Source: Eledone cirrhosa (taxonomy: Eukaryota). From it: DNA of 64,000 bases. Of the stretch, positions 1 through 41,536 are shown in pieces (positions within the stretch are counted from its first letter, which is position 1; each line of letters opens with the position of its first letter). The translations under genes and the position numbers were made by a program. The notes under the pieces were generated by a model. It did no database searches. It had not been told where the DNA came from and saw only the letters and a list, made by a program, of their open reading frames with translations. Location: contig OZ024743.1 of assembly GCA_964016885.1 (NCBI GenBank), forward strand, positions 290,718,001-290,782,000. Reading direction: 5' to 3'.

Positions 1-3000
1 AATAATAGACACAGCTCGGGAATTTACTGCGCTTATGGCATTTCTGCTGTTCAATACGCTCCGTAGTCTCCGAATGTATTCAGTTCTTAACAATTCCTTC
101 ATTTTTTTGTTCTTTATGCCATCATCCTCCAGAACGCCCAAATACTTGTATCCTTCCTCAGAGTCAATTTCGTTTATCATCTCACCTGTTGGTATCAGGA
201 TTCCGTTACTTCTGCTCAACCTACCCATCCTCATCACAATGACTCCACACTTACTAATACCAAACTGCATACATATATCACTGCTGAAAATACGGACAGT
301 GTCAACAAGCACATCCAACTCCTTCTCACTCTTCCCGAAGAGCTTAAGATCGTCCATGAAGAGGAGGTGATTGATGGTAAGCTCTCCCTTTCCCAACTTG
401 TATCCTGCTCTCACTTTTCGCAGCATAATGGTCAAGGGCATTAGGGCAAGGACAAACAACAGAGGGGACAGGCTATCTCCCTGGAGGATACCTCTCTTGA
501 TCTTCACGCTTCCCAATGATTCTCCAGTTGATGTCAACTCTGTCTCCCAGGACCCCATACTCCTGCCCAGCAACTGTCTGATGTTATCTGCCACCTTGAA
601 GATCTCCAGGCTTTTGGTGATCCAAGAGTGAGGCACCATGTCAAATGCCTTTCTGTAGTCTATCCATCCCATGGCAAGATCAGTGTGTCTCCTCCTGCAA
701 TTCCCCATTACCATCTCATCAATAAGTAACTGGTCCTTTGTACCACGTGACTTCTTTCGGCATCCTTTCTATTCGTCCGGTAACAAGTTGTTTGTGTGGA
801 GGTCATGGTAGATTTCCCCAGACACAATGCTCGTCAACAGTTTCCACATTACGGACAGACATGTTATAGGTCTATAGTTGGTAACATCATTACCCTTGAT
901 TCGGTCTTTCGTTATCAGAACTGTGGTACCTTTTGTCAACCACTCTGGCACCTCACCCGACACCAAGCAGTCATTGAACATGGCCGTCAGTTTCGGGTGG
1001 AGGGATGTTAAATTTTTAATCCAATACCCCTGCAAACCATCTGGGCCTGGTGATTTCCAGTTGGTTAGTTTTTTTGCCTGCCCCTTAAGAGTTTCAACTG
1101 TGATACTCAAATCAGTTTGCTGGTGTGCCTGCTCACCGATCTCCCTCTGTACTGTCTCAATCCACCCTGCCTGGTCATTATGTCTAACATCCTGCTCCCA
1201 TATTCCTCTCCAGAATGTTTTAGTTTGTTCTGCCTCAGGGATCAAGTCGTTGCCTCTTTCTTTCCCCTCAAGCTGTCCAAACAGCATCTTCTGGTTGTTG
1301 TCGAACATGCGGTTCTGTTTATACTGACTGACTCTGTTCTCGTATCGCCTGATTTTTGCACTCTTTGCTACAATGCGTTGCTTCAGTTCCTCTATGATAA
1401 TATTTAGCTTTTTCCTCCTAGTTTTGTACTTTATTTCCAGTCTATTTTTAGTGCCTTTTTTTTTTAGTGTCCCATTCTGTAGTGACTCAAGCTTTCCTAT
1501 GTCATTTCTCATTTCCTTGATTTGACCACTCAGTCGTTTCTTCCACCAAGGCTCTGCTCTTTCTTGTCTGTTGTTTCCTCTCGTTTTTATACCAAGTAGT
1601 TTTCCTCACCGTATTTGCTGTTGCTTTGAAGATATTGTTGCACTGGTGAAGGCTCCTCGCCTCAAGGTATGGGATTACTTTGTTTACCTTAGCTGTTGTT
1701 TCTTTTAACTTTTTCCTGTCTACAAATCTTAGGTTCATAGGTCTCCCATTATCATTGTTCAATTCATCTACCACTAAATTTAGGATGTCAACCGAATCTT
1801 GTCCTAGCCCGTCAGCATTCATCTCCTCAGTGGCCGTATCTCTGTTCCAGGTATTATTTATCTCAGTATTCAGATCATTGTCTGCTTCGGGTGGTTCATC
1901 TGTTCTCTCGACCTCTTCACCTTCATTTCCCACTGGCTCGTTTGTCTGGCATACTACACCCTCCATCTCCAAGCTATTCTCTCTGCTCAGTTCCTTCTGT
2001 TCCAGCTCGCTTATCCACCCATTAGTTCTTATTACCCGAGCCTGCCCGGCCAATGTTTGTTCATCTATTTTAAATAGACCAATCTCGCTCCAGATGTTAT
2101 ACATCCGTCTCCTATAGCCCCTCTCCTTGGGGTTACTTTTCAGGTAACATTGCATAACAGTTCTATTCAATTCTTTCGTCCAGTTGGTTCTGGCCCCTTT
2201 CCTTCTTCTTCCTCCAACACCAGCAGTATTTGGTTGAGAGTCAGGTTCCTGCTGCTTAGCCAGGGAGCACCTGTTGGGCGAGAGTCTGTCACATGACGTT
2301 CTAGTCTCCATTTCACCGTTATTCGAACTGTTTAGGTTCGATATTTAAACACTCTTATCGAGGATTGGCGAATGTATGGTTACATAGCCATCTGTGGATT
2401 CACCGTTTCCGGTGGTTGCGCCGTTCCATTTGGCACTTGTGTGGCATTATCACCACGCTGTAGACGAACACAAATAAACAAACAAACACACAGGCATAAA
2501 AAAGAACCAAAATGAATAGGCATAAGTTTCATTGTAATGTAGTGTTCGAATGTCTGACTTAGTTTTTCCCATCTCTTCTCTGTCCGTCCGCTTGTTTCAC
2601 TCTTCATTCTTATTTTCTTTACGTTTTTTTTTGTTTTTTGTTTTTGTTTTTCTCTGTTTGTTTTTCTCGTTTTTTGCTGTTGTTGCTGTGCTGTTTTGGT
2701 TTTGATGTTTGTTTTTTCTTTTTTCTTTTGAGTCTATCTATATATTTTGATGCCTTCCTCTTTTTTAGTAGGAATTCTATAATGTGGTGGCAGCAACTAG
2801 CAGAAGCAATGGGAGACAGTAGTGGCGGTAGCGATACTGAGACAGCGGTGGTGGTGATGTCGATACCGAGGCAGTGGTGGTGGTGATGTGATCGTATTAC
2901 TGTAGTGATGGTGTTGTAGCGGTGGTAGCAATGAAGGAGTGGTGGCGGCGGTGATGGTGGGATAGTGGTAGTAATGATGGCAGCAGTGATGGTGTTGTTG

Positions 3001-15461: not shown

Positions 15462-15604
15462 CATCGGAAAATAAAGAACAACAACGCAAAAGTACAAGTT
15501 ACAAATGGTATCAGGTTCACGCTTAGTGAGACCGGAGGGTGAGGGTGCGAAATTTCGGGCATAAGCCTTTCATTGGGAGAGTGGGATATATATATATATA
15601 TATA

Positions 15605-18490
15605 ACAAAGGAATTGTGGTAAGGAACCAGATGGACCATAACGCACCAGAGTACTCAATACTTAGGGTAGTAGAGTTTCGAAATAGGAAAAAGTATGACC
15701 CCTACGGCAGAGCTCAAGCCGTTTCGACGGTAATTTCTGGACTAAATTTGAATATTTAGCCTGGTGCATGAATAGCCGAACTGGTCAAGGGGGTACTTCC
15801 TTATATGGGAAGATTGTAGTTGTCAAGAGGATTGGTTAAAATTTGTTGTAAACACAAATAAGTCTATCATGGCATTTGGTGGGAGGTAGGAGTGACAGAA
15901 CTTGCCTGTAGAACAATGGGGGTGAGTGGAGCCGGTGAAGCGTTGAAAGTGATATCTATACAGCAGATTCTAAGGATCGTGTATAAAGTGGAGGAGGGAG
16001 GTTATAGAATAGGTAATTCGAATGAGAGAAGGAGACAATAAAAGATAATAGAAATAAATAAAAAAAATATACAGAATTAGATAGTGAGAAATTAATTTTT
16101 AAAAAAATGAGAATGCTATCTTACAATTACAGGTTAATAAGTTGAGAATAAAAAAAAATTGTAGAAATGGAGTAGTAACAAAACTGATACAAAATTAAAG
16201 GGGTCTAACACATCTGCTATAAGTAGTTAGTAAAAAGTATTCGGCCATTCTATCTTAAAATTGCAGAGGTGGGGGAACTGATGCTACAGAGGCCCGATGG
16301 GCTGCATCGGGGTAGGCGAAAGACGAAAAGCAGACTCAGAAGAAAATAGTGGGTGGAAGGAAATGATAGGATGAGACAGGGGGAAGAAGAAGACATAGAG
16401 GAAAATAAAAGAGATACATCTACCTATGTAAGCTGGTGTTTTCCATAAATTATTCGGCAAGTGGGGGGGTATGAGCCGTTGTCCACCCACTGGGGTCGTT
16501 ATGGGGTTTGAGGGCGAAGTAAATCCTATGCAATCTGTGTTTGCACGCGGTTAGCAGTTCGCCTTTCTTGGTTAGGAGTTGGTCCTTCGAAAACAGCATT
16601 TGTAATGTTTCCTCTGAGCATAAATTACACGGACGGGGTCCTCCCGTGTAAGAGTTAGCTCTGGACAGTAAGCTCCAACTGAGATTGTAGGTTATATTAT
16701 TATCTTGGAGGTTATCTGGAGGTTACCCTTAACCTAGAAAATGATCTGTACTACCCATACAGGAAACCAAACGACAACCTGCACTACATCCACCGCCGCT
16801 CTAACCATCCTAGAAATATCACCTATAACCTGGTTAAAAACATCTCCCTCCGCATATCTCGTTTGTCCGCTAATGAGCAGATATTCGACGAACACGCGCC
16901 CCATTACAACCAGGCCCTCAAGCGGAGTGGCTTCCGGGAGGAAATATCCTTTTATCAAGCTTCCCTTAGCGGAACAAGCAAGTTACACCGCAGCTACGCA
17001 ACTATCGTGGTTCAATCCTCCCCATAATGCCCAGGTGGCAACACCTATCGGGAAAATCTTCTTTAGGCTCCTCGAAAAACACCTCCCACTACAACACAGC
17101 TACCACAACATAATCAACAAAAACACCAGCAAACGCTTCTACCGCACCACACCTAACTTCGCACAAAACATCGTCTCCTCAAACAACAAAAAACTCAACC
17201 CTATGGAAGAAACAACCTAGACATCAGGGAGAGCCGAAGTTGTAACTGCCCTGATAGATCTACGTGCCCCCTCAACAACAAATGCCGAGAACGTAACCTG
17301 ATCTACCATTGCAACGTGAGGATGGACACCAACAAAGCTTTATAGGATTAACCGCGTGTGACTTCAAAACCTGGCTCTACCAACACTTTCTGAAACCCGG
17401 TCCGGCGACATGCCACTGCACTTTCGGGCCTCATATGTGACCTTCAAGATAATAATATAACCTACAATCTCACTTGGAGCTTACTGTCCAGAGCTAACTT
17501 TTATACGGGACGACGCCGTCCTTGTAACTTATGCTCGGAGGAAACATTACAAATTCTGTTTTCGAAGGACCAACTCCTAAACAAGAAAAGCGAACTGGTA
17601 ACCGCATGCAAACACAGATTGCGTAGGATTTACCTCACTCTCAAACTCCATAACGACCGGGTGGGTAGACAAGTGCTGATACCCCCCACCCACCCCACAC
17701 ACACACTTGCGAATAAGTTAGGGAAAACCCCAGCTTACATAGGTAGATGTATCTCTTTTCTTTTGCTCTATGTCTTCTTCCCCCTGTCTCATCCTATCAC
17801 CTCCTTCCACCCCTTATGTTCTTCCTCGTCTACTTTTTCCCCCTTCGCCTACCCCGATGCAGCCCATCGGGCCTCTGTAGCATCAGTTCCACCACTCCTG
17901 TAATTTTAAGATAGAATTGGCCGAATACGTTTCACTAACTACTTATAGCAGATGTGTTAGTCCCCTTTAATTTTGTATCAGTTTTGTTACTACTCCATTT
18001 CAACAATTTTTTTCTATTCTCAACCTATTAACCTTTAATTGTAAGATAGCATTGTCATTTCTTTAAAAATTAATTTCTCACTGTCTAATTCTATATATAT
18101 TTTTATTTCTTTCTATTATATTTTATTGTTTCCTACTCTCATTCAAATTACCTATTCTATAACCTCCCTCCTCCATTTCATACACTATCCTTTAGAATCT
18201 GCTGTATGCATATCATTTTCAACGCTTGACCGGCTCCACTAACCCCCCCCCCCCCTTGTTCTACAGGCAAGTTCAGCCACCCCTACCTCCCACCAAATGC
18301 CATGATAGACTTATTTGTGTTTACAACACATTTTAACCAATCCTCTTGACAACTACAATCTTCCCATATAAGGAAGTACCCCCTTGACAAGTTCGGCTAT
18401 TTATGCACCAGGCTAAAAATTCTAATTTAGTCCAGAAATAGACGTCTAAACGGCTTGAGCTCTGCCGTGGGGGTCATAGTTTTTTCCTAT
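15605..18490 (+). mobile_element. 5'-truncated Penelope-like element with an inverted upstream pseudo-LTR
   Basis: Body 16725-17640 encodes YRKPNDNLHYIHRRSNHP, WFNPPHN, CNC..CPLNNKC..NLIY and CNLCSEE..LLNKKSEL..CKH. 15683-16714 is an inverted copy of 17438-18490. Confidence 0.85.
15698..15794 (-). ncRNA. Hammerhead-like motif in the PLE pseudo-LTR (second copy 18378-18474, plus strand)
   Basis: ACCCC(C)-UUGACCA...GAAAC GGC uugagcucu GCC GUA GGGGU. Stems I and III pair well, but the CUGANGA core is altered. Confidence 0.5.
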
Positions 18491-24510: not shown

Positions 24511-25709
24511 TACTAGTATATTAACCCGGCGTTGTTCGGGGTTTGAAATTATGCTAAGAATATACAGCAGAACATTATTTGTCCCCAACCTATCAAAATA
24601 AGCAGAAATCTTCAATAATTAATCCAAACGAAACATCATCATCATCATCGTCGTCGTTTAACGTCCATCGTCCACCAAAGCATGGATTTGGACGAGAATT
24701 TTCCCACTTGACGCAAGATTGGTTGTCTTGCTCGTATGGGACTGTCTGGCGGGTTTTCTACGGCTGGATGCCCTTCCTAACACCAACCACGTTTACAGTG
24801 TGGACTGGCAGGTTTTTACTATGTTACCTACACGGCCACATTACAGCGTCGGCTGTGTGTTTTTTTTTTGTGGTGACACCTACACGACCTCATTTATTTC
24901 GGACTGGATGTTGAGGTACCAACATAACTTTACATCGAAAGGGGTGGTGTGGATGGGGTGGGGATAGTGGGACGGGGGTGTATTTTGGTAAGAGGTGCCT
25001 ACTGACTGTAGGTTTCGCTTTGCACTTAGGCAAGGCGGGTCTTCTGTTTTACTGCGTAGCGCCAAAGATCTCGGTCCAGTGACATTGTCTTGGTTAGGTG
25101 TAAGTGTGTGAGGTCGGAATTTATCAAGTCGTTCCAGGTTTTTCTGGGTCTGCCTACTCCGTGGATGCCGTCTATTGTCATCGCCCTGCACTCTTTTATA
25201 CAGCTGTCTGCTTTCATGCGCATCACGTGACCATACCAACGTAGTCTTCTCTCGAGTAAACAGCATTTGATCCCTCTTATTCCTAATTTCTCACTTAGTT
25301 CATTCATGCTTTGCCGTTCAGGTATATTACTATTACACATCCGAATATTTAGTGCAATCTGTGTACACATAAAACTATGTTGATAATGAAGGAAAACACT
25401 GAACAGGATGTAGTTATACAAATGATTAATAAGGATTATCAATAAAATTGGTTATCTCCCTTTTTCTATAAGGATCGTCAATAAAATTGGTTATCTCCAT
25501 TACATCAATTGTGCTACCTATAATTTTGATATCGATTTTTTATTGCTCAACGTGGGTCAATCGGAAAAAATGTGTGTGATGTGAACATACTAGCGCCCTG
25601 TGCAACGTGCACAGAACATTTGGTCAAATTCGGTTGGTAATTGTAAAAGCCTTAGGTATCCAAAATTGTACACGGACACACACACATCCTCGCTATTATA
25701 TATATAAAG

Positions 25710-25712
<3 letters not shown>
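24511..25712. mobile_element. Non-autonomous Helitron-like element interrupted by an RTE
   Basis: ACTAG plus a CCCGGCGTTGTTCGGG hairpin at one end, and acggacacacacacat..tattatatatataaagat at the other. Confidence 0.4.
24634..25345 (-). mobile_element. RTE-clade LINE 3' fragment with 3' UTR and (TGA)n tail
   Basis: ERRLRWYGHVMRM...GVGRPRKTWNDLI..DRDLWR; the tail reads catcatcatcat on the plus strand. Confidence 0.85.
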
Positions 25713-25764
<52 letters not shown>

Positions 25765-28700
25765 CAGGGAGGAGAAACCGAGAGTAATAAAACTTATCAA
25801 TCCAACTAGTGCAGAACTAACACCCAACCTTTTCAACTTACTCTCTAAAGGTCTTAAATTCACACCGACCCCACTACATCCTAACTACTATGAAATGAAG
25901 GAAGACCTCACAGACTTCTGTAGAAAGTTACGACTCAGTGATGAACTATTCGACCAGTACAATGAGGATGAATCATTAGCCATAAATAGAAGCAATTACA
26001 CCCAATCAAAAGGTAGAAATAAAACCCTGGACGAATTCTGTGAACACATCACAAACTTCCCTTACCAACACTTGCACAGACAAAAACACAAGCCAAACGT
26101 CAACAAGAAAGAATGGGAAGAATTAAATAGATTAAAAACCGACAGAACCATTACAATTAAAGAGGCTGATAAAGGGAGTACAGTAGTCCTAATGGAGACA
26201 GAATTCTATATCAACTTAGCGCTCTCCACTTTGGAAAACGAAACATACTACGAAAAGGCTGAACACTACAATCAACAGAAAATTATGAGAAACCTAAAAA
26301 CTCTGATCAACCAATACAAAGAAGGACTCACTAACAAGGAATTCAGCTTCATCACACACTTCACAAGTAAATCCAGCCTTTTATACGGTATCTCTAAAGT
26401 ACATAAAAGCGAATTAATAAGTAAGGCATGCAAGGAAGCCACAGACATAGTCATCAATGTCCCCTCAACCAATGATCTCAAATTAAGACCTATAATAGCA
26501 GGCCCTGCATGCGAAACCCACCGCCTTAGCAACTTCATGTATACCCTTCTCAAGCCTTTTCTCAAACACATCAACAGCTATATAAGAGACGACCTAGATA
26601 TGCTGAATCACCTCCCTAATATGCCCCTTTCTGAACAAACCCTACTAGTGACTTTCGATGTAGTCAACCTATACTCCAACATCTCCCACAACCTAGGAAT
26701 AGAAGCTATCCAATTATGGCTGGATAATTGAACTCCCACAACGCATCAAAAAATAATTCGTGATAGAGGGACTCAAATTTATCTTGGAGAACAATTACTT
26801 CGTTTTCAATAACAAACACTACAGGCAGAAATCTGGTACCGCTATGGGAACGAAAACAGCACCCACTTATGCTAACCTAGTCATGGGATACCTGGAAATC
26901 ACCCTCTACACTAAAGTCCTAAACAAATTTGGAAACACTCTCCACTTATACATAGAAAGGAACTGGAATCGATATCTAGATGACTGCTACATCCTTTGGC
27001 ACGAAAACATCGAGAAACTTAAAGAATTCCACACCCTTATAAATGGGCTCAACACGAATATTAACTTCACGATGGAATACAGCCATCAACAACTCCCCTT
27101 CCTCGACATCCTCATTAAGATCCATAAGAAAAAATAGAAACAGACATATACTACAAGCCCACAGATTCCAAGCAATATCTTCCTTTCAACTCTTGCCACC
27201 CTAGACACGTTAAAATTAATATTCACTACAACTTAGCCAACAGACTCTGTACTATAGTCTCCAATAAAAACACCTGCTACTTACGGCTACAAGAACTAAA
27301 GGACACACTCATAGGCAGGGACTACCCTGCATCACTAATTGACAATGGAATCCAACGTGACCTAAAACTAAGTACCCAGAACCTTAGACACCCTAAAGTA
27401 AATCAACCGAAACTAAAAGCTCTTCCATACATCTCCACACACAACCCCCTCAACAATGAGGCCTTTGAGACCATCCTCCAGAACATCCCTGTGTTGAAAA
27501 AGGACCATAGAATGAACCAAATCCTACGAACACACGATATCATAAAGAGCAAAAGAAATCTAAGTCAATGAAAAACATCCTAACACATGCCAAAGTACTG
27601 CCAACCACAACAACGAAACCCACAGTAAAAAAAAATGCGATAGACCCAACTGTGGCATATGCATCAACCTAATAGAGGGTTCGGAATTATATTTCAAAGA
27701 AGGAAACGTTTTATAGTAAAACACAATTTCACATGCGCATCGGAAAATCTAATATATGTATTAACTTGCTCAGGTTGTCGAGAACAATACATAGGCCAGA
27801 CCAAACACAGCCTCCGCCAACGCATGACTGTCCATAGATCCCAAATTAAAATACGAGGATACAGGAAATTACCACTGAGTGAACACATTGATACCTGTGC
27901 CGCCCAAGAACATCACAACTTCAGAATCTTTCCCCTCTACAAATTTAAAGATAATGCCACCCAGACACAGCGCATCAGCAAGGAATGTTACTTTATTAAT
28001 AAATATGGACCCCGTCTAAACACATCTCCCTAAGACGAACCCACAACATACACACGTACACATACATACCTACATCAGCATACATCTCTATCCACATATA
28101 AACACAATGACATTCGTAAACACACATGTTCTATGGTGCAACACAAATATACACAAATTTGCTTACCTTTTGATGTCTATAGATATAAACGTGCCGACAC
28201 ACATACATACATAAACGCAAACATGCACTGCACACTGATGGGCACATACATATTTGTACACATGTATTCCAATACGGCAAGGCCTAATGGATTCCCCTTG
28301 CAGTACGTATAATCTGGACACTCACACACACCTTGGTATTATGCCAATACTATATATCATTTCACACCTTTTATTATTGAGGTTGTTGATGTTCTATTGA
28401 GAGAATTTTTTTTACTGAAAATATCGAATAATGTACACCATTTTACCAGTATCACAAAAATAAATACTGGTCCACCCACACACACACACACATATATACA
28501 CACACACACATACACACGCGTACATTAACATACAAAGAGACATACACACACACACACACACACACTTCTCCGTATAAGACAAGAGCTGAAAAATATCTTT
28601 TAACATGTTAACATATCCCCCACACACTTACAGACACATTCCTACTGACCATCCCTCTACCACGAATTTCTCTGCTACACACACACAAACACACACACAC

Positions 28701-32473: not shown

Positions 32474-32497
32474 GTATATATGTACATATATACATAC

Positions 32498-33280
32498 ATG
32501 AAACCATGGTAGAGGTAATTAAATATGTCTTCTAAGTTTATTTTACACCTAATTGTGTTTAGTTGACTGTATATCTGGTCGATTTCTACATGCTGTAGGT
32601 TATTTTGCTAATTGGGAGAGGAAATGGTATATATTATATCTAGTGATTCTAAAGACATGTTGTATGATATATAGCTCTGATTATTTAATTTATTAATTCT
32701 TCATTGAGCCACAACGTGACCCGTTGCAAAACACATATATATCTATGACTCTATATATATGTAAACCCTTATATGTAATAATCTCCTGTTAGTTTGAGAT
32801 ACAATTTGGGTATTATGGGCTGGGCTTTCTAGCAATAAGCCTACCCGCCGTAAGCAACTAATCTCATCCTTTCTAACTTGACCGCTGCCACGTCACGATT
32901 CTTAGCCATTTTTGAATGTATTCTTGGCGCGATTACTTTGGAAAATTAATTGTCTAATTTTGAGCTCACTCCTGATGAATCCGAAGCTCTGGACATTCCT
33001 GTTATCGGATGTCTTAAAATACGGATGAAACCATGGTAGAGGTAATTAAATATGTACGCATTTCTTTTAAGTTTATTCTACACCTAATCGTGTTTAGTTG
33101 ACTGTATATCTGGTCGATTTCTACATGCTGTCGAAATGTTCGATAAACACTCCATCGTAGCCGTCGCGAAGGGGCTGCTTTCAGTTATTTGTCGGAGATT
33201 CCTGCATAGGAGACTTTATTTTTATAGCTTGGTCTAATTGATTTTTTATATGGTTAATTATGCTAATTGGGAGAGGAATA
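32498..33280 (+). mobile_element. Retrozyme-like element, family 2 (partial tandem, period ~527 bp)
   Basis: 32498-32596 is repeated at 33025-33130, and tgctaattgggagagga recurs; HHR at 32968-33043. Confidence 0.72.
32968..33043 (+). ncRNA. Type I hammerhead ribozyme with a palindromic minimal stem III
   Basis: ACUC-CUGAUGA-AUCCG..(GACAUUC/GGAUGUC)..CGGAU-GAAA-CCAUGG-UA-GAGGU. Confidence 0.8.
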
Positions 33281-33429
33281 CGACGAGTGTGTTTAACTCT
33301 AATGCACTGAAGTATTTTTATCTTATATATATATATATATATATATTTGTGTATAGTGGTAGCTATGGTGCTCCCGTAGGTGGTATGCCAAAATTAGCAC
33401 TCGATATTCATCAGAGTAGAGTGTATATA

Positions 33430-36834: not shown

Positions 36835-36886
<52 letters not shown>

Positions 36887-36923
36887 AGGAAGTTATAGTT
36901 CACTTGAAGCATTGTGTAATGAG

Positions 36924-37280
36924 GTATATGTATAATAAAGCTAAAACAATGCAGGTATGGACATAGAATAAAGAATGCAAATGCAACAGATATATTGACA
37001 ATTAGTCTTTTATCTTAGATTTATTTAAATGTCCTTAATTTTCGAGATAATATATCTTCTTCGGAGAGAAGTAAAGCGGTTAAACCAGCATGACTTGACA
37101 AGCTATTTAGAACACTGGTTTAACCGCTTTACTTCCCTCCGAAGAAGAGATATTATCTCGAAAATTAATGACTTTTATATAAATCTAAGGTAAAAGAGTA
37201 ATTGTCAACAATATCTTTTGCATTTGCATGCTGTATTCTATGTCCATACCTGCATTGTTTTGGCTTTATTATACATATAC
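36924..37280. repeat. Long fold-back element (~165 bp arms) with an HHR-like motif on each arm
   Basis: 36924-37088 is an inverted copy of 37115-37280; CCGAAGA-a-GAGAU auu AUCUC-GAAA; lies between (TA)n tracts. Confidence 0.8.
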
Positions 37281-37284
37281 AAAC

Positions 37285-37368
<84 letters not shown>

Positions 37369-39012: not shown

Positions 39013-39552
39013 TTCACTTCAACTGTTATAATTTTCTTCACAACTACATATACAATATGTTTACCGTGTGGAATCTAAAATGCATATGTATTATATTCAT
39101 GAATATATTTTATTTTACAAATTCTTGTATACTCAATTTAAGAGCGCAATACATACAGTGCCATAATAACCGTGGTTACTAGCGTTTAATAGGTTTCTTC
39201 GTAAGTCATATGAAAATAACCGAAACATATTTCATTTCGAAATATTTATATATATAAATGTTTTCGCATATAAGATATGTAAATTGTCTGAAATGCCCTT
39301 TCAGCAGATATGCCAAGAAAAAGTACCACGAATATTTCAGGTTTCAAGACACTCACGAATTAAGAGGGTGCTTCTGCTTGACTTTTAAAATACTGAAAAC
39401 GGTCGAAAATTTCCGTTCAAATACACATTTCAAAAGAAGAATAACCAAAACATATGTTGTTTCGAATAAACGCGCTTATCAATCAGATTTCATTTAAAGG
39501 ATATATATATATATATATATGCAAAGGTTTTAGGCGGACACACAGAAACGAA

Positions 39553-39600
<48 letters not shown>

Positions 39601-39608
<8 letters not shown>

Positions 39609-40838
39609 GACGTAAAATAAGAAAATTTTAAAAATAAAAAATTAACTTACTTAGTAAAATGTTCACTCCAACTAATTAGTTTCTGTAATGGGATAAATAT
39701 AGTTACACAATGTAACTATCGAGAATTCATTACGTCATCATTACTAGTATTAGTGTAAATCTGTACGCATATGTTGGTAGATGTATTAATTCTATATATT
39801 TATCTCCAAATTATTTGTTGAGCAAACTTGCCAAATCTACTGCTAATTCAGAGTAGTAGTAGTAGGCTTTGTCATAATACCATCCCACTCCTAACTGACT
39901 AACCTCAGTGTCACGTGATCGATTCTTTAGAATACACCACTGACCAGAGGCAGTGAACTTTTTCAGTGCTATGGAATTTAGTCCCCGCTAGCTTATTACA
40001 TCCACTGAATTATTATTTTTATATGAGTTCCTAGTGTCCGCGCATTGCCTGGGAACTTAGCTGACAATAGACTTCCGATTGACGTAATGAATTCTCGATA
40101 GTTACATTGTGTAACTATATTTATCCCATTACAGAAACTAATTAGTTGGAGTGAAAATTTTAGTAAGTTAATTTTTAATTTTTAAAATTTTCTTATTTTA
40201 CGTCTTTCATATAATTGTTCTGCATCCCCCTGCATTGAACCACCTAGGTACTTTGACATAACTTATATATTTACTAGTATTAGTGTACATCTGTACGCAT
40301 ATGTTGGTAGATGTATTAATTCTATATATTTATCTCCAAATTATTTGTTGAGCAAACTTGCCAAATCTACTGCTAATTCAGAGTAGTAGTAGTAGGCTTT
40401 GTCATAATACCATCCCACTCCTAACTGACTAACCTCAGTGTTACGTGATCGATTCTTTAGAATACACCACTGACCAGAGGCAGTGAACTTTTTCAGTGCT
40501 ATGGAATTTAGTCCCCGCTAGCTTATTACATCCACTGAATTATTATGTTTATATGAGTTCCTAGTGTCCGCGCATTGCCCGGGAACTTAGCTGAGAATAG
40601 AATCCCAGATGACGTAATGAATTCTCGATAGTTAAATTGTGTAACTATATTTATCCCATTACAGAAACTAATTAGTTGGAGTGAAAATTTTAGTAAGTAA
40701 TTTAATTTTTAATTTTTAAAATTTTCTTATTTTACGTCTTTCATTTAATTGTTCTGCATCCCCCACATATGTACTTTGACATAACTTATATATTTACTAG
40801 TATTAGTGTACATCTGTACGCATATGTTGGTAGATGTA

Positions 40839-40843
<5 letters not shown>
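39601..40843 (+). mobile_element. Retrozyme-like element, family 3: inverted partial copy plus ~2.1 tandem units of ~525 bp, each with an HHR
   Basis: Units start at 39741, 40271 and 40794. 39601-39740 is an inverted copy of 40077-40211. HHRs at 40071-40152 and 40601-40682. Confidence 0.85.
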
Positions 40844-40898
<55 letters not shown>

Positions 40899-40982
40899 TT
40901 TAAATGAAATCTGATTGATTAGCGCGTTTATTTGAAACAACATGTTTTCGTTATTCTTCTATTGAAATGTGTATTTGAACGG

Positions 40983-41061
<79 letters not shown>

Positions 41062-41069
41062 AAAATGTT

Positions 41070-41195
41070 CAAGACCCCGACAAAACAGCTTGAGCTCTGC
41101 CGTTGGGGCCATGCCCATTTTCCTATTACCCACCCTACTACCCAAAGTATTGAGGACTCTGGTGCGTTATGGTCCAACCTGGTTCCTTATCACAC
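41070..41195 (+). mobile_element. Fragment of the pseudo-LTR family found at 15605-15725
   Basis: gcttgagctctgccgt..ctactaccc.aagtattgag.actctggtgcgttatggtcca.ctggttcctta matches the reverse complement of 15615-15725. Confidence 0.75.
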
Positions 41196-41536
41196 TTACT
41201 TCGTTATATATATACTTCTGAAATACAACCGGTCCTGGCATTGTTAAATATACTGTGTCCGTCAACTTCTTATATATATATATATATAAAATAATAGAGG
41301 TGTAACACACAAGTTATGATATATTGGTAAACGGAAAAGAAAATGTATATATGTATATATATATATATGTGTGTGTGTGTGTATGTGTGTGTGTATGTGT
41401 GTGTATGTGTGTGTATACTAGCAGAGGAAACCGGTGATACCCCAGCTAATTTATGAAAATTACAATATATTTTAGCACTGCTGTAGGAATTATAGCACAA
41501 TATTTATTTTCGCTTGTTCAAAGCAAATCATCAAGA

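Follow-up and report, generated by a model that had tools for sequence, protein, structure and literature searches.

The available text of PMC4209133 describes the hammerhead ribozymes of Penelope-like elements (PLEs) by their short stem I, their large stem II, an additional base that separates positions 9 and 10.1, and a helix III that is palindromic; it proposes that they work as dimers, and their activity in vitro is given as low. A tail at a single end of an inverted insertion has also been described for PLEs (available text of PMC8557442 and PMC3846280). The PLE protein of the green anole, Poseidon PAc, cuts and extends both strands in vitro, and two internal starts delimit the tail; ribozyme cleavage was dispensable in that system, no reads ended at the cut and the starts were not homologous to the target (PMC11167929). 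How PLEs form head-to-head inversions with a one-ended tail, and whether their hammerheads cut in vivo, is left open in the available text of PMC8557442 and PMC11167929. The non-LTR retrozymes are an already known element class, and their link to PLEs has been proposed and, in vertebrates, supported. One of nine retrozyme dimers of Xenopus was cleaved in vitro, according to the available text of bioRxiv 10.64898/2026.07.22.740005.

The locus described here lies in a 64-kb stretch of Eledone cirrhosa DNA, the whole of which is called the window below. Judged from its sequence, it is very probably a single insertion of a non-coding, hammerhead-bearing tandem repeat, likely a non-autonomous PLE (non-LTR retrozyme). 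Its copies were probably inserted into (TA)n by a Penelope enzyme that is borrowed and likely of Hydra type. With the metazoan non-LTR retrozymes, as presented in the available text of PMC7229834 and bioRxiv 10.64898/2026.07.22.740005, the family shares non-coding tandem units, each of which contains a single type I hammerhead (52 monomers), a strongly self-paired monomer, a GC content of 34-36% and the coexistence with PLEs, the repeat being dispersed at high copy number in a genome that also carries PLEs. Its units of 516-594 nt are longer than the 170-400-nt RNAs given in the available text of PMC7229834 and fall inside the range of 51-972 bp given in that of the bioRxiv study. The family differs from those retrozymes in its PLE-type hammerhead, where stem II is long and divided into two parts and G12 is preceded by an extra A, and in its short arrays, often arranged head to head in (TA)n; the word 'inverted' is absent from the available text of PMC7229834. 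By the sequence-level definition, the family classifies as a non-LTR retrozyme.

Likewise, the (TA)n targeting, the hammerhead near the 3' end, the tandem and inverted layout and the one-ended tail are common to the family and the Hydra-clade PLEs characterised in the available text of PMC8557442, but the family lacks an ORF and its tail is about 110 nt long compared with 30-40 bp. A search of the available literature returned no paper on this hammerhead family or on the clustering of breakpoints at the cut; lists of Hydra hammerheads are contained in the supplements of PMC8557442. The family contributes statistics from insertions that are young and number in the thousands.

Layout of the locus and size of the family

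The insertion is composed of an inverted and a direct arm placed between two TA microsatellites (Table 1). The two near-identical tandem units and the inverted arm that had been noted in a preliminary description were confirmed from the letters of the window. Between the units, 39741-40270 (530 nt) and 40271-40793 (523 nt), 14 substitutions were counted together with 15 gap columns among 534, while the remaining 50 nt or so (40794-40844), formerly taken for a partial third unit, is actually a fixed terminus of the family. The inverted arm (about 39604-39739) matches the complement of 40608-40747 at 96% along a stretch of 140 nt; it retains TGATGA and stops there, so that it lacks C3 as well as the 5' strand of stem I. 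The differently mutated tandem cores, CGAUUGA and CAGAUGA, and the end of the inverted arm at UGAUGA are thus as they had been claimed, and the same is true of the perfect palindrome of stem III: AACTAATTAGTT (12 nt) occurs at 39670, 40136 and 40666 and at no other site in the 64-kb window.

The cut of hammerhead 1 is placed after GUU (40147), a position which we take from the hammerhead consensus. The core of hammerhead ribozymes is conserved, and because both complete tandem cores are mutated, the window copy is probably dead. The tail contains two conserved hairpins, the long one of which finishes just before the long end.

Table 1. Features of the insertion and its flanks, in window positions.
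Feature	Positions	Strand	Description
TA microsatellite	39556..39604	none	left target side, (TA)n
Inverted arm	39604..39740	-	starts at the fixed short end (~+70 nt past the predicted cut) and reaches back as far as U4 in the hammerhead core
Direct arm	39741..40844	+	spans two hammerheads; 5'-truncated at +128; terminates at the fixed long end (~+180, family coordinates)
Type I hammerhead 1	40071..40152	+	stem I ACTTC/GGAGT, core CGATTGA mutated (40076), long stem II, GAAAC (40134), palindromic stem III
Cut-to-cut monomer, 530 nt	40148..40677	+	predicted linear/circular RNA unit (sequence-based prediction)
Type I hammerhead 2	40601..40682	+	stem I AATCC/GGAGT, core CAGATGA mutated (40606), GAAAC (40664), predicted cut after 40677
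Tail between short and long start sites	40748..40844	+	~110 nt in the family; 11-nt deletion in the window copy
TA microsatellite	40844..40896	none	right target side, (TA)n
Inverted copy of left-flank DNA	40877..40986	-	copy of 39409-39520, 95% identical; between two TA runs

The motif is not a product of chance, since a 22-mer taken from it had 9,169 exact matches in the 3.0-Gb genome and its reversed control had none; the intact-core pattern was matched 8,447 times, with no match for the control. The unit, for which a single copy had been considered as a counter-indication, is therefore highly multiplied genome-wide, and at about 1.5 motifs per locus we infer a family of about five to six thousand loci. 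A DNA similarity search supplied 142 matches from the best 40 of 2,689 candidates. The analysed set comprised 125 non-redundant loci, one pair having turned out to be a duplicate and 17 overlapping sequences having been omitted, and contained 194 hammerheads and 52 complete cut-to-cut monomers. Compared with the window copy, the subfamilies show an identity of 72-86%. Across the 52 monomers the longest Met-ORF measured 22-86 aa, which bears out the proposal that the element is non-coding.

The hammerhead motif and its predicted fold

The type I motif of the family opens with stem I (ACUCC/GGAGU) and CUGAUGA; an extra C precedes the two-part stem II and an extra A comes after it, and GAAA, the palindromic stem III and GUU complete the sequence. 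The consensus proposed in the preliminary description holds for the core CUGAUGA, but its 5' strand of stem I, ACUUC, occurs in only 9/194 copies, compared with 114/194 for ACUCC. A genome-wide consensus without CUGAUGA was not found: intact cores were present in 54 of 63 full copies at 40 loci chosen by DNA similarity (2 skipped) and in 41 of 49 matched rows (among 52). Stem III and GUU were unaltered in 188/194 copies. Identical mutated cores, such as those at loci L001, L017 and L024, recur at unrelated loci, often together with a change in the adjacent stem I.

Stem II was paired in 99.1%, with four pair types at one position, among 36 of 77 distinct intact-core variants. Its covariation score was 0.276, compared with 0.126+/-0.008 for shuffled and at most 0.095 for slid alignments; for two of the five measures of covariation, the excess over the shuffles was not clear (24/500 and 409/500), and the rows are related to one another. 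Stems I and III are nearly invariant: one pair of stem I is changed on both sides, and stem III is invariant and palindromic. The G10.1-C11.1 pair is invariably G-C. An extra A stands after C11.1 and before G12, facing the extra C after A9, and 189/194 copies read C...A; G12 thus does not follow directly on the G10.1-C11.1 pair. The motif resembles the PLE hammerheads in the extra base between A9 and G10.1, the 5-bp stem I and the palindromic stem III, whereas the available text of PMC4209133 does not mention an additional A in front of G12. The search of Rfam found no hammerhead among the 36 window matches at E<=1, probably owing to the long stem II and the extra core bases.

The earlier suggestion that the palindromic stem III leads to a dimeric hammerhead gains support from the computed folds. 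The stem III hairpin alone was assigned +1.5 kcal/mol and the duplex -9.0, and in silico the double hammerhead reached -64.2 kcal/mol, compared with -52.2 for two active monomer hammerheads and -57.2 for two best folds, so the dimeric fold is favoured by the model. The core is sequestered in the lowest-energy fold of the monomer, which counts, like the extra A after C11.1, against the preferred explanation. Circular folds had z values from -4.2 to -6.1 (3 of the 52 monomers, 25 shuffles each), indicating strong self-pairing. Of the four sequencing runs on record, which come from two studies, none is registered as RNA.

Outer and inner ends of the insertions

Two sites account for the outer ends, one about 60-80 nt (short) and the other 170-200 nt (long) past the predicted cut, and 177/195 canonical 3' ends adjoin a TA or CT run. 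The 125 loci consist of 66 simple head-to-head pairs, 49 single arms and 10 complex loci. Long and short ends were combined in 55 of the 66 pairs, one pair was short+short, none was long+long and 10 had one non-canonical end; the long+short combination thus holds in 55/56 classifiable pairs (p=8e-16). The single arms were long in 29 cases, short in 18 and odd in two. The long+short rule is a sharp count of a PLE feature that is already known from PMC3846280 and PMC11167929 and the available text of PMC8557442. Arms crossing two or more hammerheads made up 59/195, and the arrays cover one to three units only.

At both start sites there is a TA-rich match of 4-6 nt to the target, in contrast to the PAc sites, which are reported as non-homologous; the family and PAc are alike in having two internal starts that delimit the tail, an AT-rich target, extension of both strands and a stem-loop at the start region (PMC11167929). 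In the hairpins of the ~110-nt tail, 3/31 predicted pairs were changed on both sides (20 of 30 variants). A test for target-site duplications revealed direct flank similarity in 4/122 loci, the (TA)n target being one that hides duplications.

Runs of (CT)4+ between the long end and (TA)n were present in 13/18 arms with an internal CTCT/CTCG, compared with 2/23 otherwise (p=4e-5), and the internal copies of the CT site remain unexpanded. This fits reiterative copying at initiation; later replication slippage, aided by the neighbouring TA array, may be an alternative source of the runs. Close to the window copy, about 90 nt of left-flank DNA with TA recur inverted on its right, and a genome search with the left flank gave long matches only at these two places of the window. 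Inverted flank similarity was found in 9/122 loci, compared with 1/82 plain TA runs (p=0.05) and 3/244 mismatched pairs (p=0.003), which is suggestive of template switching during repair, and the flank copy in the window is possibly a by-product of such insertion repair.

The inner ends were evaluated for the 171 arms longer than 100 nt. They were concentrated 0-19 nt past the cut (23/171 in 3.8% of the exposure, p=2e-7), compared with 2/171 in the 20 nt before it, and two arms start exactly at +1. On the second lap, 19/76 arms stop at +1..22 compared with 5/57 in the following 22 nt (p=0.02), and the two preceding windows contained 6/82 and 6/88 stops (pooled flanks p=1e-4). Among the pattern-picked loci alone the accumulation at the cut was weaker, 11/114 (p=0.04) and 9/41 (p=0.017). 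It coincides with the extended stem I (+1..+26), and a 4-nt indel at +15..20 blurs the BLAST edges of the inner ends. In PAc, no reads ended at the cut (PMC11167929), unlike the inner ends of this family. The junctions between inner ends mostly show an overlap of 0-7 nt or tiny gaps.

The preliminary description had the inverted copy stop at the ribozyme core. This is correct for the window locus, but not as a rule of the family: genome-wide, inverted arms end at many positions, and stops at the core amount to a modest hot spot at best (18/171 at -80..-61, with an uncorrected p=0.002 confounded by the choice of loci). The proposal that the inverted arm always stops there was accordingly rejected.

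The accumulation of inner ends hints either at cleavage in vivo or at stem I stalling the enzyme. Most simply, some templates would have had ribozyme-made 5' ends, and the read-through arms would have been copied from RNA that was uncut or had been ligated; stalling at the extended stem I accounts for the accumulation equally well. The most serious rival, a variant of the preferred explanation that is compatible with mobilisation by PLEs, takes up the stall: the PLE machinery moves the element, the ribozyme does not cut in vivo and the template is the uncut multimer. In accordance with it, 57/76 arms that reach the cut region read through, although a ligated circle leads to the same expectation; core bases deviate from the majority somewhat more often than nearby bases (13/441 vs 10/854), and the anole PLE works in vitro without cleavage (PMC11167929). 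However, conservation of the core extends to subfamilies whose identity with the window copy is only 72-86%, while stem II covaries, two arms begin at +1 exactly, and ends are almost absent just upstream of the cut. We consider an uncut template unlikely.

Penelope elements of the same genome and the origin of the insertions

A coding PLE family of the same genome carries the motifs RWR, DKT, CxCx5C and C-terminal CxxC and CxH, which correspond to the Hydra clade as defined in section 11 of PMC8557442. The coding Hydra-type family terminates in (TA)n at two sites, and 24/27 of its head-to-head end pairs were long+short, the remaining three having a truncated end. As the coding element follows the short+long rule, the footprint is tied to the PLE machinery. 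The inverted-plus-tandem layout, regarded from the outset as typical of PLEs, is supported by this common architecture, and together with the short+long rule it points to the proposed non-coding element mobilised by PLEs. By analogy, the donor of the enzyme is likely of Hydra type.

The search for a partner covered 185 PLE loci: 35 Neptune-type, 60 GIY-YIG or Hydra, 30 short-stem-II and 60 from two further Hydra families. No autonomous element with a common hammerhead or tail sequence was present in this sample of top matches from few families. The two hits among the 60 GIY-YIG/Hydra loci, in L128 and L168, were rejected as evidence of a partner because they are separate insertions. A Neptune-type family (784-aa ORF) and several Hydra-type families sampled from this genome had no sequence in common with the unit. 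The short-stem-II hammerheads with the same C...A bases are parts of other repeats, next to which no PLE ORF lies in register; repeats of this kind, with the extra C and the extra A, were observed at L253, L259, L262, L265, L267, L278 and L280.

The units might instead derive from the ends of an autonomous PLE, as truncated pieces (pLTR tandems), if its coding copies lay outside the sample. According to the available text of PMC8557442, most PLE insertions are partial tandems that are truncated at the 5' side and accompanied by an inverted copy, and the loci examined were about 150 of several thousand. Nevertheless, the arms traverse whole monomers of 516-594 nt without an ORF (52 monomers, with 59/195 arms crossing at least two hammerheads), the upstream flanks of 48 single-arm loci have no common extension (two pairs matched, in flanking DNA), and 28/48 of these flanks adjoin a TA or GA run; such an origin is very unlikely. 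More improbable still is a satellite- or MITE-like spread at the DNA level (through a transposase specific for TA, a rolling circle or unequal crossover, the inversion then representing terminal inverted repeats), which would account for tandem units, inverted arms and TA flanks but is largely refuted by the asymmetry of the ends, since their polarity fits reverse transcription: the outer ends differ in sequence (short vs long), the inner ends are variable, 49/125 loci are single truncated arms and the arrays are short, the unlike ends and polar truncation leading to the rejection of a MITE/TIR reading.

Under the preferred explanation, a borrowed PLE enzyme acting on a hammerhead-bearing transcript, multimeric transcripts would fold as double hammerheads via the palindromic stem III, would be partly cut and may circularise. 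The PLE protein would cut both strands of a TA run and prime one cDNA from each broken end, one starting at the short and the other at the long site, each with its 4-6 nt TA-rich match to the target. Each cDNA would run back through one to three units, often stopping near the ribozyme cut, and the two truncated ends would be joined head to head, mostly with an overlap of 0-7 nt; extension of one side only would produce a single arm. The short+long rule, the accumulation at the cut and the template-dependent (CT)n runs translate into specific predictions for a PLE assay on a 530-nt template.

A joint reading goes further and regards the family as a genomic record of PLE integration, in which an asymmetric pair of RT active sites would prime at two fixed RNA sites on the ends of the TA break, stutter before elongating, in a telomerase-like lengthening of the microsatellite, and drop off at ribozyme-made 5' ends. 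We offer it tentatively and on balance lean against it. If it is true, the drop-off would be evidence that a dimeric hammerhead of PLE type, with one additional base in its core, cuts in the germ line. PLE activity may also help to build the TA microsatellites of this genome.

Several other PLE-related sequences were observed. A young Neptune-type PLE is present at 25580-26731 of the window and at L061:2363-9451, with many intact 784-aa ORFs (RVT_1 and GIY-YIG), a separate upstream frame of 455 aa without a Pfam match and 4.7-kb tandems; no canonical hammerhead was found between its units. A broken Hydra-type PLE occupies 15586-18490 of the window, with its 3' end on both sides (the long end inverted on the left, the short end on the right). 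The assignment of its part 16738-17903 to Naiad was rejected, as the motifs fit Hydra. A first look at this family returned 35,108 candidates, and no canonical CUGANGA was seen at the 3' end in the copies inspected. Further Hydra-type families, at L274, L217, L187 and L271, each have their own 3' ends in TA; for one of them, 150/150 scored hits were identical in the queried part of the protein, and about 30 ATT repeats come after one long end.

The TA run that comes next after the insertion contains, at 41060-41214, a miniature insertion of the 3' end of the Hydra-type PLE found at 15586-18490, the long-end arm of which was mapped, while the inverted short end was recognised by eye. Another hammerhead-like motif lies in a partial tandem between TA runs at 32497-33320; it has an intact CUGAUGA at 32972 and A-U at the base of stem II and probably represents a second family of a similar kind. 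Finally, the long head-to-head palindrome at 36885-37287, whose arms are 93-94% complementary and which is also situated between TA runs, is probably another inverted insertion of the PLE type.
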